A stretch of 64,000 bases of DNA from an uncultured Rivularia sp. (GTDB lineage Bacteria; Cyanobacteriota; Cyanobacteriia; Cyanobacteriales; Nostocaceae), in contig OY762007.1 in NCBI GenBank assembly GCA_963665115.1, positions 4,928,001 through 4,992,000 on the forward strand, in the 5' to 3' direction. The notes beneath the pieces were generated by a model, which saw only the letters and a list, made by a program, of their open reading frames with translations, was not told the DNA's origin and ran no database searches. This document shows positions 40,111 to 44,578 of this stretch, piece by piece. The translations under genes were made by a program, and so were the position numbers. Position 1 is the first letter of the stretch, and the number at the start of each line of letters is the position of its first letter.

Positions 40111-40417
40111 TTCGTAGTAAGGACTTTAGTCCCTCATCTCCAGATACCTGGCGATTGAATATGCTGCACCTATTGGTGAACGCGGCTACACAGGCAAAGT
40201 CCACCTTCGTGGACTAAATATTTAATGTTTATTGTAGGGTGTGTTATGGCGACGAAATGGTTGTAGGGAAACAGATATGTTAGTTAATGCCGTAACGCAC
40301 CGTCTTGTTTTAGCGAAGTAATCTTTTAATTTTACTAGGGCGTTAAAGTCCTGGCTACACAGGCAAATTTCATCTGTGTGGGCTGAAAATTCTATCGATT
40401 TAATTCGCTACGAGCGA

Positions 40418-40461
40418 ACTAAATTCACAATATTCCAAATTTATGGTATATTGAATTTAGT
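40418..40461 (+). promoter_or_regulatory. Sigma70-like promoter embedded in a palindrome (candidate operator) upstream of the retron leader
   Basis: TTCACA (40424-29), 17-nt spacer, TG-n-TATATT (40447-52); perfect inverted repeat ACTAAATTCA (40418-27)/TGAATTTAGT (40452-61). Confidence 0.55.
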
Positions 40462-40462
40462 C

Positions 40463-41076
40463 GGATAAAAGGAGATGTTTGCCATTTACTGGATTGCTTC
40501 GGCATTCCGTGGAAGATAGTTATATATCTTCTATCGTGTTTCTAATTTATCTATTTGAGAAACGTGTAATTCACGCGGGTTGCCACACTAGAGACTACTT
40601 AAAGACTCCAGGAAAGAAACCTCAATGAAATTATCATTGCACGATTCCTAGAAATGTTTAGTAAACATAGAACTGTAATTATTTCCCCTATGAGTACGTT
40701 GTTCTAGGTTACTAACTAAACTAAATTAGGAAAATGAATATGAATAGAAAACACTCAAGCGCAGCTTTAGCAAATTAGCTGCGTAGGTATGGGGAGGGTT
40801 AAAACTGCTGTTCTCCTGGTTTGTTTGAGGCAACACTTATTTGTGGAAACTTGAATAAGTGCAAACAAAACATATGCATGAGGTTTTTATGCAAGAAAAA
40901 TCCGATAAACAGCAGCAGCAATCGAAAAAGCGTAAATCAAAACGGTGGCTGAAATGGCTCCGTCAACCTCAAACGCTCCGTCTACTGTTACAACTTGGTA
41001 CAATCATTTTTAATATCTTAAAATGGTTGGTCGAACGTTCACATGGTTGATATAGATTGCTTACCTCCTTTTATCT
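40463..41076 (+). ncRNA. Putative retron msr-msd-like structured RNA that also contains a small ORF
   Basis: GATAAAAGGAG (40464-74) is the exact reverse complement of CTCCTTTTATC (41065-75); at least seven internal stems including a C(UUCG)G hairpin; directly upstream of the HTH-RT genes. Confidence 0.7.
40889..41050 (+). CDS. 53-aa basic/amphipathic small protein, candidate retron effector
   Basis: GAGG RBS at 40880-83, ATG 40889; MQEKSDKQQQQSKKRKSKRWLKWLRQPQTLRLLLQLGTIIFNILKWLVERSHG. Confidence 0.6.
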   Translation: MQEKSDKQQQQSKKRKSKRWLKWLRQPQTLRLLLQLGTIIFNILKWLVERSHG

Positions 41077-41116
41077 ATAAAACTCCTTAATATCCTCTGT
41101 TCAAAGGAGGTTAACA

Positions 41117-41425
41117 ATGTTAAATGAGGCTCTAAGATTAATTAGAGTATTCTACGATTTACCACAGAAGCAACTTGCAGAGAAATTAGGAATATCTAAA
41201 TCATATCTTTCAGAAATTGAGTCGGGAAAAAAGACTCCTACAATTGATTTGCTAAATCGTTACGCAGATTTTTTCGATATCCCAGCATCCTCAATTATGT
41301 TCTTTTCAGAAAGCTTAGAAAAGGATGCAAAAGTAGAAAAACTGAGAAGTTTTGTATCTTCTAAAATTATAGCTATTCTTAACTTTATTGCTGAAAGGTC
41401 TGGTAATTCTTATGCCGAAAAATAA
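41117..41425 (+). CDS. XRE/Cro-like helix-turn-helix protein associated with the retron RT
   Basis: LRLIR..LPQKQLAEKLGISKSYLSEIESGKKTP; strong AAGGAGG RBS; overlaps the RT start. Confidence 0.9.
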   Translation: MLNEALRLIRVFYDLPQKQLAEKLGISKSYLSEIESGKKTPTIDLLNRYADFFDIPASSIMFFSESLEKDAKVEKLRSFVSSKIIAILNFIAERSGNSYAEK

Positions 41426-42311
41426 GCATACAATATATGAATTAGATCAATCACCTTTTTACTGTTTGAAGTCTAAAGCGAAACTCGAAAAGCTTTTACT
41501 TATAACTAAAAGCAAACTTCAAATGCTTACTAAATCAGAAGATTTGTATCGCGAGAGTAATATTTATGGAAAAAATGGTAAACCTCGTCCCGTACAAAAA
41601 CCAAGACCTGATTTAAAAAGAGTTCAAAAGCGAATTGAAGAGCTTTTAAAACGAATAAAGCTTCCAAGTTATATATATGCTCCTGCGAGGGGGCTTTCCC
41701 ATATTAATAATGCTCAAGCTCATATAAATGCTGTAGTCCTAAGAACGCTTGATATTGAAAAATACTTTCCTTCTACACCATCAAGGCACGTTTATTCATT
41801 CTTCCACAAACGGATGAAATGTTCTCCAGATGTTGCTGGAATTTTAAATAAGATATTAACATTCAAAGGTTATTTACCAACTGGCAGTCCATCAAGTCCA
41901 ATTATTTCCTATTTTTCACATATTGATATGTGGGAATCAATATACGAAATTGTGAATCAAGCTAATTGTAATTTAGCTGTTTACATGGACGATGTAACTA
42001 TTTCAGGTGATGTTGTTCCTGACAAATTGATTTGGCAAATAAAGCAGCAGTTTTATAGCTGTGGATTGCGTAGTAATAAACAGAAAGAAAAATTTTACGT
42101 TGGCAAAAAGTCATCTGAAGTAACTGGAATCATTATCAAAGAAGGTAAGTTAAAGATTCCTAATCGTATACATTGGAAAATGTATAAGATTCGTCTAACT
42201 CTTCATTCAGAAACTCAGCCAAACAAACGTAAGAAGCTGATGCAACAATTGGAAAGTTTAAAGGCATATGAGCGACAAATTCTAATATCAAACTCTGCTT
42301 CATTAAATTGA
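41412..42311 (+). CDS. Retron-type reverse transcriptase (299 aa from ATG 41412)
   Basis: KPRPVQKP..LKRVQKRI, NAQAH (retron NAxxH), LDIEKYFPS, LPTGSPSSP, YMDD catalytic motif, VTG (region Y); no maturase or endonuclease extension. Confidence 0.9.
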   Translation: MPKNKHTIYELDQSPFYCLKSKAKLEKLLLITKSKLQMLTKSEDLYRESNIYGKNGKPRPVQKPRPDLKRVQKRIEELLKRIKLPSYIYAPARGLSHINNAQAHINAVVLRTLDIEKYFPSTPSRHVYSFFHKRMKCSPDVAGILNKILTFKGYLPTGSPSSPIISYFSHIDMWESIYEIVNQANCNLAVYMDDVTISGDVVPDKLIWQIKQQFYSCGLRSNKQKEKFYVGKKSSEVTGIIIKEGKLKIPNRIHWKMYKIRLTLHSETQPNKRKKLMQQLESLKAYERQILISNSASLN

Positions 42312-42364
42312 ATGTTCAACAGCGGTATTATCTGCATTAAATTAACAAAATAAAAGGATAAAAA

Positions 42365-42592
42365 ATGAACACTTCTATCATTGACGAAGTAATTGAACAA
42401 CTCGGAACCATGCCGCAGCACTTACAATCGCAAGTACTAGATTTTGCTCGTAAACTTGTACAAAACGAAGTTAAAGGTACTCCTGGTTCGCAATTACTGC
42501 GTTTTGCAGGTTCTATTCCTGCTAATGACGTTAAATTAATGAGGGAAGCGATTGAACAAGACTGCGAACAGGTAGATGTCAATAAGTGGTAG
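42365..42592 (+). CDS. Putative antitoxin (DUF2281-like) of a PIN toxin-antitoxin pair
   Basis: 75 aa, MP..LQ.QVLDFAR.L..G..G..LLRFAG.I; overlaps the downstream PIN gene. Confidence 0.7.
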   Translation: MNTSIIDEVIEQLGTMPQHLQSQVLDFARKLVQNEVKGTPGSQLLRFAGSIPANDVKLMREAIEQDCEQVDVNKW

Positions 42593-42971
42593 GTTCTTGC
42601 TAGATACAAACATTATCATTGCTCTCTTTGCAGATGAAGAAGCAGTTAAAAATAAGCTTGCTCAAGCCAACGAAGTTTTTATTCCAAGCAATGCTATTGG
42701 TGAATTGTGTTACGGTGCTAGAAAATCGGGGCGAGTTCAGGCAAATCTAGCAAGAGTTGATGAATTGATTGCGAACAGTGCAGTGCTTGAATGTGATGCT
42801 GAAACTGCTCGGCAATACGGTGAAGTCAAAAACCAGTTAAGGTTAAAAGGTCGTCCGTTACCTGAGAATGACATTTGGATTGCAGCCGTTGCCTTACAGC
42901 ATAATTTAGTTTTGGTAACACGCGATGCTCATTTTCAGCAAGTTGAGAATTTGCAATCTGTCAATTGGTAA
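42576..42971 (+). CDS. vapC: VapC-family PIN-domain ribonuclease toxin
   Basis: LLDTNIII, GEL..GA, NDIWIAAVA, LVTRDAHF. Confidence 0.9.
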   Translation: MSISGRFLLDTNIIIALFADEEAVKNKLAQANEVFIPSNAIGELCYGARKSGRVQANLARVDELIANSAVLECDAETARQYGEVKNQLRLKGRPLPENDIWIAAVALQHNLVLVTRDAHFQQVENLQSVNW

Positions 42972-43189
42972 ATATTACCGTATAAATAGAATGCAATTAT
43001 TTGATTGTTTTTCGCTGCTTCACAGGTTTTCTCTCACGAAAATAACTAATCAAATACTCAGTCTTATTGATAAGACTTCTGCTATTAGCCCAGGGTTTGC
43101 AACCCTGGGTGGTTTAGGTTTAGAAGGAACAATATCAAACAAAAACTCCCAATTGACTTTATAATAAGTTTCAAGCGGAGAAATAAACC

Positions 43190-43783
43190 TTGAAACTAAT
43201 TTTAGTTGCCCCCGAATCATTATTAACAGCAGCTTTTCAACAACATTTCAATTATTTCCCTAACATCGAAATTGTTAACAACTACTTTGAATGGTTGCCT
43301 GTTTTCGATTGTTTAGTTAGCCCTGCAAATTCGTTTGGGATGATGGATGGTGGTATGGATGCAGCCATTATCAAGTTTTTTGGAGATTCCTTGATGGAAA
43401 AGGTGCAGCAGCGCATCCTTACAGATTATTTAGGAGAGCAACCTGTAGGAACATCAATGATTGTAGAAACAGGTAATCGTAAACATCCATTTCTCGCACA
43501 TACACCTACCATGCGGGTTCCCATGTCTATCGTAGGGACGGATGTTCCTTATGTAGCGATGTGGGCTATGCTTTTAGCAGTGCGTCGTCACAACCAATCT
43601 TCTCAGCATAAAATTAACACCGTTGCTTGTCCCGGTTTGGGTACGGGAATCGGTAGAATTGATTACGATGAAGCAGCCAGACAAATGGCTTTAGCTTACG
43701 ATAATTTTCTTTATCCCCCGAAGCATCTTAATTGTTTTGTTGCAGCTTCCAGACAACTTTTGATTTGGGAAGGTAATGGGTAA
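43190..43783 (+). CDS. Macrodomain (ADP-ribose binding/hydrolase) protein
   Basis: VSPANSFGMMDGGMDAAI, HTPTM, CPGLGTGIG; TTG start after GGAG. Confidence 0.87.
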   Translation: MKLILVAPESLLTAAFQQHFNYFPNIEIVNNYFEWLPVFDCLVSPANSFGMMDGGMDAAIIKFFGDSLMEKVQQRILTDYLGEQPVGTSMIVETGNRKHPFLAHTPTMRVPMSIVGTDVPYVAMWAMLLAVRRHNQSSQHKINTVACPGLGTGIGRIDYDEAARQMALAYDNFLYPPKHLNCFVAASRQLLIWEGNG

Positions 43784-43868: not shown

Positions 43869-44213
43869 TTATGGTTCTAACAATTTCTCCATCAGCGTAT
43901 AAATATCGTTTTTATCACCTTCTTTCCGTAAACCTATTCCTACTACTAAAACTATTATTTTCTCAAGTTCAACTTTGTAAATAATTCTGTAGCGTTGACC
44001 TACTGCTCTAAGACTGCGATAACCTAAAAGATAATCGACTAAAGCTTTACCTTGAAGAAGTGGATCTGTTTTTAACTTATTTATGCGTTGGCTCAAGCCT
44101 TTTCGATGACGCTTATCTTTAATACCGCTTAACATTTCTAATGCTAGCGGTGTCAGTTGAATTTCATACTCGGTATTAGCGGGCTGATTTGTATCTGAGT
44201 CCAACTTATTCAA
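43869..44213 (-). CDS. RelE/ParE family toxin
   Basis: YEIQLTP.A...L, GKAL...L.GYRSLRAVGQRYRIIY.V....VLVVGIG.R. Confidence 0.87.
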   Translation of the reverse strand: MNKLDSDTNQPANTEYEIQLTPLALEMLSGIKDKRHRKGLSQRINKLKTDPLLQGKALVDYLLGYRSLRAVGQRYRIIYKVELEKIIVLVVGIGLRKEGDKNDIYTLMEKLLEP

Positions 44214-44311
44214 ACTTCCCTAAAATTCAAGCACCTTACAATTAGAAATGTACATTAAAGTGTACATTTGTAGAAGCAGTATGGGAAAGTCCAAAAATAT
44301 ACTTACTAGAT

Positions 44312-44578
44312 TTATTCAAGTCCAAGTTTAGCTTTTGCTTCCTCCCAAGTTATAGTTTCTCCTCTTTGAGCCTGCTGAATACTTTCTTGCAACTGTTTGC
44401 TGAATTTTTTATCGGAAAGAATAGCTAAAGTTTCCATCATAGATTCAAATTTTTCAAAGCTAAGTGCTGCCATTACTGGCTTACCATGCTTAGTAATAAT
44501 TACTGCATCGTCTTTCAACTCATCGGGCAAATTTAATAACTGCTGTCTAGCTTCTGTAATAGTTAGATACTTAGGCAT
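44312..44578 (-). CDS. Phd/YefM family antitoxin
   Basis: TITEARQQL..L, VIITKHGKPV, FESMMETL.IL. Confidence 0.9.
   Translation of the reverse strand: MPKYLTITEARQQLLNLPDELKDDAVIITKHGKPVMAALSFEKFESMMETLAILSDKKFSKQLQESIQQAQRGETITWEEAKAKLGLE

Follow-up and report, generated by a model that had tools for sequence, protein, structure and literature searches.

Among the retrons described so far, Vpa2 and Sen3 offer the closest comparison for the locus presented here. For Vpa2, the searched text of the preprint of Zhang et al. (10.1101/2025.10.22.683967) describes a three-armed hybrid RNA (hyRNA) of ~470 nt that has direct repeats of 7 nt and folds its 3' end back onto arm 1. The msDNA of Vpa2 is 86 nt long, and its 23-nt 5' stem-loop is needed to derepress translation of the small protein (SP). 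The experiments reported in the same text cover the toxicity of SP, a complex of reverse transcriptase (RT), helix-turn-helix (HTH) protein and hyRNA, and msDNA-dependent translation. For Sen3 (type VI, cl2075), the searched text of Garcia-Rodriguez et al. (10.64898/2026.04.27.721009) gives post-translational HTH-SP control, constitutive ssDNA and sensing of RecBCD. Canonical retron ncRNAs follow the order a2-G-msr-msd-a1 in the searched text of Mestre et al. 2020 (PMC7736814).

The window analysed here is a stretch of 64,000 nucleotides from the genome of an uncultured Rivularia sp. (assembly GCA_963665115.1, contig OY762007.1). In a preliminary description, its positions 40463 to 41076 had been read as an unusually long retron RNA of ~610 nt, bounded by a terminal a1/a2 helix. 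The feature is real, but it was partly misread as a pure ncRNA: almost certainly, the region is the hyRNA of a type VI retron. With it, a cyanobacterial locus joins a known kind of type VI retron, whose hyRNA type is already in print. The RNA and the three genes of the cassette are as follows.

40459-41095, plus strand: predicted hyRNA of ~637 nt, comprising msr, msd, riboregulator and SP coding sequence (both ends inferred)
40889-41050, plus strand: conserved ORF of SP, 53 aa, with a basic N-terminus and an amphipathic C-terminal helix; predicted toxic effector
41117-41425, plus strand: Cro/C1-type HTH protein of type VI retrons, with Arg at residue 7 (PADLOC HTH_VI, E 2e-36; Pfam HTH_3)
41412-42311, plus strand: retron RT of type VI, 299 aa, with NAQAH, YMDD and VTG (PADLOC RT_VI, E 9.7e-91; next family 3.6e-44)

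The SP-HTH-RT order, as given by the PADLOC family matches and the ORF, is that of type VI retrons. The 53-aa ORF takes the place of the small accessory protein upstream of HTH, the HTH gene is of the type VI kind and overlaps the RT start at 41412, and the RT carries the NAxxH, YxDD and VTG motifs of type VI (clade 3). In an RT tree of sequences other than that of Vpa2, a clade of 41 rows stood apart from 14 other RT_VI matches. The SP ORF was intact in 23/23 homologs, its differences by codon position (3005/1680/4707) showed a third-position bias, and SD-like purines were present upstream in most homologs. Only a sub-threshold Pfam match was obtained for SP and no match among the PADLOC families, and one SP homolog is annotated as a CDS on a Scytonema plasmid. 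In HTH, residues Q17, S27, S29, S32, E33 and E35 were invariant in 27/27, with S27, S29, S32 and E33 lying in the helix, and relatives with solved structures include C.BclI. Three plasmids of alphaproteobacteria have a TIR-domain gene downstream of their type VI RT (L038, 2465-3424; L043 and L044, 2411-3376).

The cassette is placed between an oxidoreductase gene and a macro-domain gene. The site is variable: of 26 other genomes in the genus, 24 matched the flanks and 2 the retron part; in genome G067 the oxidoreductase-side and macro-domain-side flanks lie ~96 bases apart. As a whole, the insertion site (40111-43190) is nearly empty in G067, is occupied by different cargo of 1-5 kb in several congeneric genomes and is possibly a defence hotspot. 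RT relatives at E <=1e-50 were found in 18/301 genomes of the family and 6/401 of the phylum, counts that include this genome, and those named include Rivularia, Crinalium, Pelatocladus, Coleofasciculus and Scytonema. The genome itself holds 0 second copies of the hyRNA, and Rfam gave 0 matches in the window at the gathering threshold. The sequence of the locus recurs base for base in DNA contigs from 3 runs of one study, which may be its source. A blastn search of E. coli genomes with a distant homolog gave no match. Directly after RT lies a DUF2281-like/PIN gene pair (42365-42971, Pfam), which also follows RT in L033 and L005. Upstream of the cassette, an imperfect 39-nt direct repeat (40184-40222 and 40353-40391) with partial matches elsewhere in genomes of the genus looks like an intergenic repeat. 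A pair of small minus-strand ORFs at 43869-44578 resembles a RelE/Phd toxin-antitoxin pair.

For the comparative alignment, 23 distinct loci of the cyanobacterial clade were used, this locus included. Dropped as duplicates or near-duplicates were L011, L012, L016, L030, L031, L032 and L035; also outside the alignment were L009 and L026 (no HTH match), four distant loci, L037 (apparently the same as L014) and L068. The RT of L008 matches in two pieces, L009 is a fragment, and near the RT of L026 neither HTH nor SP was matched. The homologs are related, and the pair counts given below therefore overstate independence. Two features downstream of the msr make up most of the variable part of the RNA.

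40536-40754, plus strand: long, variable, branched msd hairpin closed by GUGUUU/AAACAC, the predicted RT template (closing helix 119/138 cells paired)
40760-40783, plus strand: 24-nt stem-loop (133/138), predicted 5' end of the msDNA; direct repeat 1 lies in the loop

Across the 23 homologs the RNA measured 518-673 nt (median 547); at 637 nt, the one described here is long for the set and not the longest. The msd together with the stem-loop took up 94-295 nt (250 nt here) and RNA length followed msd length with r=0.98, leaving a remainder of 375-424 nt. The length of the RNA here is due to the 162-nt ORF and an expanded msd, an expansion common to two close relatives. What had been called an over-long pure ncRNA includes this conserved ORF (40889-41050), which the preliminary description overlooked, and the folded unit reaches to at least 41095. 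Since hybrid RNAs of such a kind are published for type VI retrons and account for the unusual length, the finding as first posed is not new. The spread of msd length and the msd expansions suggest that template length is tolerated; short tandem duplications were seen in L003 and L006 and large insertions in L013 and L025. Little covariation was found in the msd interior among three close relatives (2/62 pairs with a positive covariation term) and the per-locus msd folding z-scores ranged from +1.3 to -6.1, for which reasons its inner structure is a prediction only. A sequence-only model of the cyanobacterial 3' half matched 2/29 distant loci.

The comparative fold of the RNA is built from the following elements.

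40463-40474, plus strand: 5' strand of terminal helix P1, with predicted partner 41083-41095 and not 41065-76 (unconstrained MFE fold)
40491-40532, plus strand: two msr-like stem-loops (95% and 92% paired; double changes in 5/7 and 3/7 pairs)
40785-40797, plus strand: IR1, an a1-like arm directly 3' of the template that pairs with IR2 (recovered by RNAalifold)
40805-40915, plus strand: arm 2, the riboregulator, with base helix 40805-12/40908-15 (179/180 cells paired in 23 homologs; double change in 3/8 pairs)
40917-41061, plus strand: arm 3, closed by base helix 40917-23/41055-61 around the remainder of the SP coding sequence (155/161 paired; double change in 4/7 pairs)
41064-41076, plus strand: IR2, an a2-like arm after the SP stop that pairs with IR1; formerly read as the 3' arm of a terminal helix

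The region proved to be strongly folded (-167.5 kcal/mol, z -6.95, 0/20 shuffles as good), and for 40459-41095 the z-score against shuffles was -5.85. All ten stem pairs listed in the preliminary description are present, GGAtTGC/GCAtTCC with the U-U mismatch already noted and CGTGTTTCT/AGAAACGTG requiring G-U pairs. Over the 23 sequences, conservation was found for the stems at 40491-508 (153/161 cells paired), 40512-531 (148/161) and 40760-783, for CACTTATT (167/179) and for the GGTTTGTTTG helix (200/225). The first two short stems are conserved with compensatory changes and are msr-like, as had been proposed, and the unpaired linker G40509 between them is kept in 23/23. For CGTGTTTCT/AGAAACGTG (84/195), CAATGA (54/103), GTTGCC40579/GGCAAC (40/96) and CCAGGA (36/54), all of which involve the poorly alignable msd, conservation was not shown.

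On 15 sequences, RNAalifold recovered IR1/IR2 together with two helices extending into the coding sequence of SP. IR1/IR2 was paired in 265/298 cells across the 23 homologs, with double change in 6/13 pairs. The 39-pair model for the 15 sequences was 95.7% paired (slid controls 30-53%) and had 14 pairs with double changes; 0-2/500 shuffles reached any of its measures, the structure having been derived from the same alignment of related sequences. As a comparative prediction, the fold has the features described for the Vpa2 type, namely three arms, a 3' end paired back to arm 1, and RBS and AUG inside arm 2. Arm 2 encloses direct repeat 2 (GGCAA, 40829-33), the RBS of SP (GAGG, 40880-83) and the SP start codon. 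Predicted anti-SD sequestration of this RBS is variable, with a median of 1.5 expected pairs across homologs. A pairing of GGAGA at the 5' end with UCUCC reached 109/115 by columns, but its probability was ~0 in whole-RNA folds; it could possibly be a helix of the ON state. For the ribosome-binding site of HTH (41093-41112), possible partners are IR2 and a pyrimidine tract close by (column support 61/91, weak).

A short element in the leader ties the two direct repeats together.

40479-40483, plus strand: leader pentamer UUGCC, complementary to both direct repeats and covarying with them; candidate lock, which would be a pseudoknot

The pentamer was complementary to GGCAA at 40829-33 in 108/108 cells, and its complement recurs in the loop of the 24-nt stem-loop. 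A leader-complementary direct repeat of at least 5 bases was present in 29/40 loci (shuffled leaders: mean 4.4, maximum 10). In this three-way test 40 of 41 loci were scored, L065 being without an anchor; L044, near-identical to L043, was left out. Outside the main cyanobacterial clade the match was found in 12/17 loci against 2.7 for shuffled leaders, with two doubtful (L041, L066). The repeat motif changes in step with the leader in at least 7 variants (GGCAA, GGCGA, GATGGC, ATGAC, AAGAC, GGTGAC and ACGACA), and the G of the pentamer is A in L046 and L008, where the repeats compensate. At the present locus the three-way score is only 4, with 4/5 bases of repeat 1 (AGCAA) matching. Across the clade the direct repeats lie ~60 nt apart, in the msd loop and in the riboregulator, as in the Vpa2 type. 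The msDNA loop would carry the sequence of the leader, which suggests strand displacement at repeat 2. The word 'pseudoknot' does not occur in the searched text of the Vpa2 and Sen3 preprints. Leader covariation, the absent priming G and the upstream palindrome are likewise not found in their searched main text, and the Vpa2 covariance model (Fig S4) may show them.

By analogy with Vpa2, we propose, with a probability of about 0.65, that the locus carries a Vpa2-like toxin message that would be silenced by its own RNA until msDNA accumulates. This reading starts from the directly computed SP-HTH-RT order, family matches, conserved ORF and covarying helices. The promoter at 40424-52 would give rise to an RNA of ~640 nt, which RT and HTH would bind. 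Arm 2 would hold the SP RBS and AUG enclosed, with the leader UUGCC paired to repeat 2 as a lock. HTH would dampen reverse transcription and likely also bind the upstream palindrome, thereby setting the output of the operon. Reverse transcription may start at the IR1/IR2 helix, from the strand after the SP stop codon, and proceed through the 24-nt stem-loop and then the long msd, with an ssDNA of ~250 nt as the predicted product. Upon phage infection msDNA would accumulate, and its 5' loop, in which the leader sequence recurs, could compete for repeat 2 and open arm 2. SP would then be translated and would arrest the infected cell. The proposal is favoured by the independently recovered three-arm fold with its 3' end on arm 1, which matches the description of the Vpa2 hyRNA, and by the direct repeats in the 24-nt stem-loop and arm 2, as in Vpa2. 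It is weakened by the variable RBS sequestration, by the departures of this copy from consensus in repeat 1, RBS and SP C-terminus, and by Sen3, which has the same gene order and is controlled post-translationally with constitutive ssDNA.

Control of the Sen3 kind would mean that the type VI hyRNA yields constitutive ssDNA and SP, that HTH neutralises the SP protein and that the RNA helices act as a scaffold. We regard this as unlikely, even though the SP-HTH-RT order and the flanking of SP by IR1 and IR2 are common to Sen3, since SP measures 52-70 aa and nearly all homologs are without the ~25-residue N-terminal extension of the Sen3 lineage. The weak anti-SD/RBS pairing in many homologs would suit such control, and so would the strongly amphipathic C-terminal helix of SP (hydrophobic moment 0.56 over an 18-residue window); against them stand the near-complete pairing of the arm-2 base helix around RBS and AUG (179/180) and the paired direct repeats. 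The latter are conserved and covarying and are described for Vpa2, while the term 'direct repeat' is absent from the searched Sen3 text.

A reading to which we give still less weight holds that the family works as described and that toxin and switch are weakened in the present copy through attenuation or decay. The copy is indeed off consensus, with AGCAA as repeat 1 (GGCAA in most homologs), GAGG as RBS and RSHG in place of LLQD at the SP C-terminus. Compared with its two closest relatives, the G to A change in repeat 1, the change of LL/FL to RS at the SP C-terminus and the remodelling of the RBS into a local hairpin are all private, and the sequence is confirmed by the DNA contigs, possibly its source. 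Against decay, L017-L019 carry the G to A change too, none of the three ORFs is disrupted, and RT retains its motifs and sits on a branch of ordinary length (0.18 versus 0.16 for its sister). The 5' end is fully complementary to IR2 (-17.2 versus -16.1 kcal/mol for IR1), but the MFE structure remains the conserved one.

It is very improbable that the RNA is a canonical retron ncRNA with 40464-74/41065-75 as its closing helix and G40477 as its priming base: the helix is a perfect 11-bp one in this genome and forms when the RNA is cut at 41076, but it is paired in 149/233 cells (64%) across homologs, within the 45-71% of slid controls, its pair probability falls to 0.02 once the tail is included, position 40477 is G in 2/23 and A in 21/23 homologs, and the template would need to traverse the SP ORF. 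When 40459-41095 was folded, IR1/IR2 reached probabilities of 0.71-0.98. The terminal pairing was thus specific to the segment chosen, as the 19 added 3' bases switch the fold to IR1/IR2, and the a1/a2-type helix is formed internally by IR1 (40785-97) with 41064-76 and not by the 5' end with 41065-75. In whole-RNA partition functions, IR1/IR2 was found in 21/23 homologs, the helix formerly proposed in 1/23 (at least 5 expected pairs of the 5' end with IR2) and a helix of the 5' end with the 3' tail in 20/23 (at least 4 expected pairs). The last of these is the weaker inference, because the duplex beats 95% of tail shuffles in only 5/23. Of the preliminary description, the folding and the stem coordinates have stood, while the terminal a1/a2 helix has not and the ORF had been missed.

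No canonical terminal a1/a2 helix directly bounds the msr-msd, and immediately downstream of the a2 arm no branching G is conserved. IR2 is followed by A in 17 homologs, by G in 3 (all of one subclade), by T in 2 and by C in 1, and a conserved G was found neither there nor just before the first msr stem across the 23 homologs. According to the searched text of the retron census paper, the base that branches is in most cases a G following TTA. On the predicted fold, the elements of a2-G-msr-msd-a1 are permuted, a2 having its place downstream of the ORF. The start of RT was placed at the IR1/IR2 helix, on the IR2 strand, because the msDNA of Vpa2 begins, by position, at the stem-loop adjoining the repeat. 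We hypothesise that priming occurs from a 3'-OH or from a base other than G. The ssDNA of Sen3 is RecJ-sensitive, which its authors read as debranching (10.64898/2026.04.27.721009, searched text); this is compatible with such priming and no proof of it. No branching base is named in the searched text of the Vpa2 and Sen3 preprints, and a literature search on retron priming and circular permutation found no paper containing the term 'circularly permuted'.

Two elements precede the transcript.

40404-40418, no strand: palindrome TTCGC-N5-GCGAA upstream of the promoter, conserved at fixed spacer; candidate operator of HTH
40424-40452, plus strand: predicted promoter of the sigma70 type whose -10 is extended (TG-n-TATATT; 10/12 matches, TG present), with transcription expected to begin near 40459

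Promoter sites were no more numerous than in shuffles, and the -10 position is conserved in the homolog alignment; the -10 box predicted before was retained as an extended -10 at 40447-52. TTCGC-N5-GCGAA at 40404-18 is the sole exact match in the window (0.02 expected) and one of 3 exact copies in the 8.7 Mb genome, of which the other two lie inside open reading frames. Within 1 mismatch, the palindrome was found at spacer 5 upstream of 34/42 loci of the RT clade (0.007 expected per window), and with spacers of 3, 4, 6, 7 or 8 in 0-2/42; its conservation within this clade crosses phyla. None of 10 loci of the other RT_VI clade carries it. The P2-like phage loci L064 and L067 form a natural control, their HTH being without the recognition-helix pattern and the loci without the palindrome. 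Four loci with an intact helix miss the cut-off: L027 has 2 mismatches, a TCAC/GTGA variant was recognised by eye in L007 and L045, and the lack of any palindrome in L048 speaks against the operator reading. On balance, the distribution of the motif points to TTCGC-N5-GCGAA as the probable operator of the retron HTH. Two other explanations of the palindrome were rejected: a box for a global regulator of the host (3 genome copies versus 6 for the reversed control) and a terminator hairpin, ruled out by the fixed sequence and spacer. Mestre et al. 2020 (PMC7736814, searched text) proposed HTH as a possible transcriptional regulator. The terms 'operator', 'palindrom' and 'autoregulat' are absent from the searched text of the Vpa2 and Sen3 preprints, and the literature search by title or abstract found no paper on an operator palindrome of a retron HTH. 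In the other RT_VI clade, long palindromes unlike this one, with a centre of 3-5 nt, were seen 600-650 nt ahead of the HTH gene in L058, L062 and L049; L058 and L062 (HTH helix SKSYLSL) carry AAGTTTTC-N5-GAAAACTT.

In this 99.9%-complete genome, RecC and AddB gave no match, and RecB and AddA only sub-cutoff helicase matches. Nostoc PCC 7120 is without recB and recC of the E. coli type (PMC5101192, searched text). Since neither RecBCD nor AddAB was found in the host, inhibition of RecBCD is unlikely as the signal here, and the trigger likely differs from the published ones.

The value of the locus lies in the comparative set, through which open questions on type VI retrons become directly testable. 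The three-way covariation names the exact bases by which msDNA may open the toxin message. The candidate operator bears on whether HTH binds DNA, two phage loci having lost both recognition helix and palindrome, and the negative search for RecBCD and AddAB in the host suggests a trigger different from the published ones. Taken as one scheme, the hyRNAs of the clade would be circularly permuted and primed without a branching G, from a 3'-OH at the IR2 end or the 2'-OH of an adenosine; a leader pseudoknot would act as a lock displaced by msDNA; HTH would act at a TTCGC-N5-GCGAA operator from cyanobacteria to proteobacteria; and a branched msDNA of 250 nt would answer to another phage trigger where RecBCD is not found. 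We put this scheme forward tentatively, as in its full extent it is rather doubtful.

Compared with the known systems, the locus shares with canonical retrons (Mestre et al. 2020, searched text) the NAxxH and VTG motifs of RT, the short msr stems and the long msd hairpin. Unlike them, it has its a2-like arm behind an ORF at the 3' end, part of its RNA is coding, and a conserved branching G is found at neither expected place. With Sen3 it has in common the gene order, the extended transcript across SP (predicted here), an IR1 that adjoins the msd on its 3' side and an IR2 that follows the SP stop. Sen3 differs by its SP of 79 aa with an N-terminal extension and by an essential upstream stem-loop with a variable loop of 3-14 nt, where the present locus has a fixed-spacer palindrome. 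In the Vpa2 comparison, the RNA here is longer (~637 versus ~470 nt), as is the predicted msDNA (~250 versus 86 nt), and the msd is branched; the RT motif is YMDD versus YADD, and the host is a cyanobacterium in which RecBCD/AddAB was not found. The leader complement and the upstream palindrome seen here are not mentioned in the searched main text on Vpa2. Like Vpa2, the locus has an SP-HTH-RT operon, an SP coding sequence inside a structured RNA, three arms from a central node, a stem-loop of ~23-24 nt at the predicted 5' end of the msDNA and one direct repeat each in msd loop and riboregulator. Its SP is likewise ~55 aa long with a hydrophobic C-terminal helix, and its HTH has Arg7, the position number mutated in Vpa2. 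This architecture suggests kinship with the Vpa2 lineage, the 'Large' lineage of type VI.
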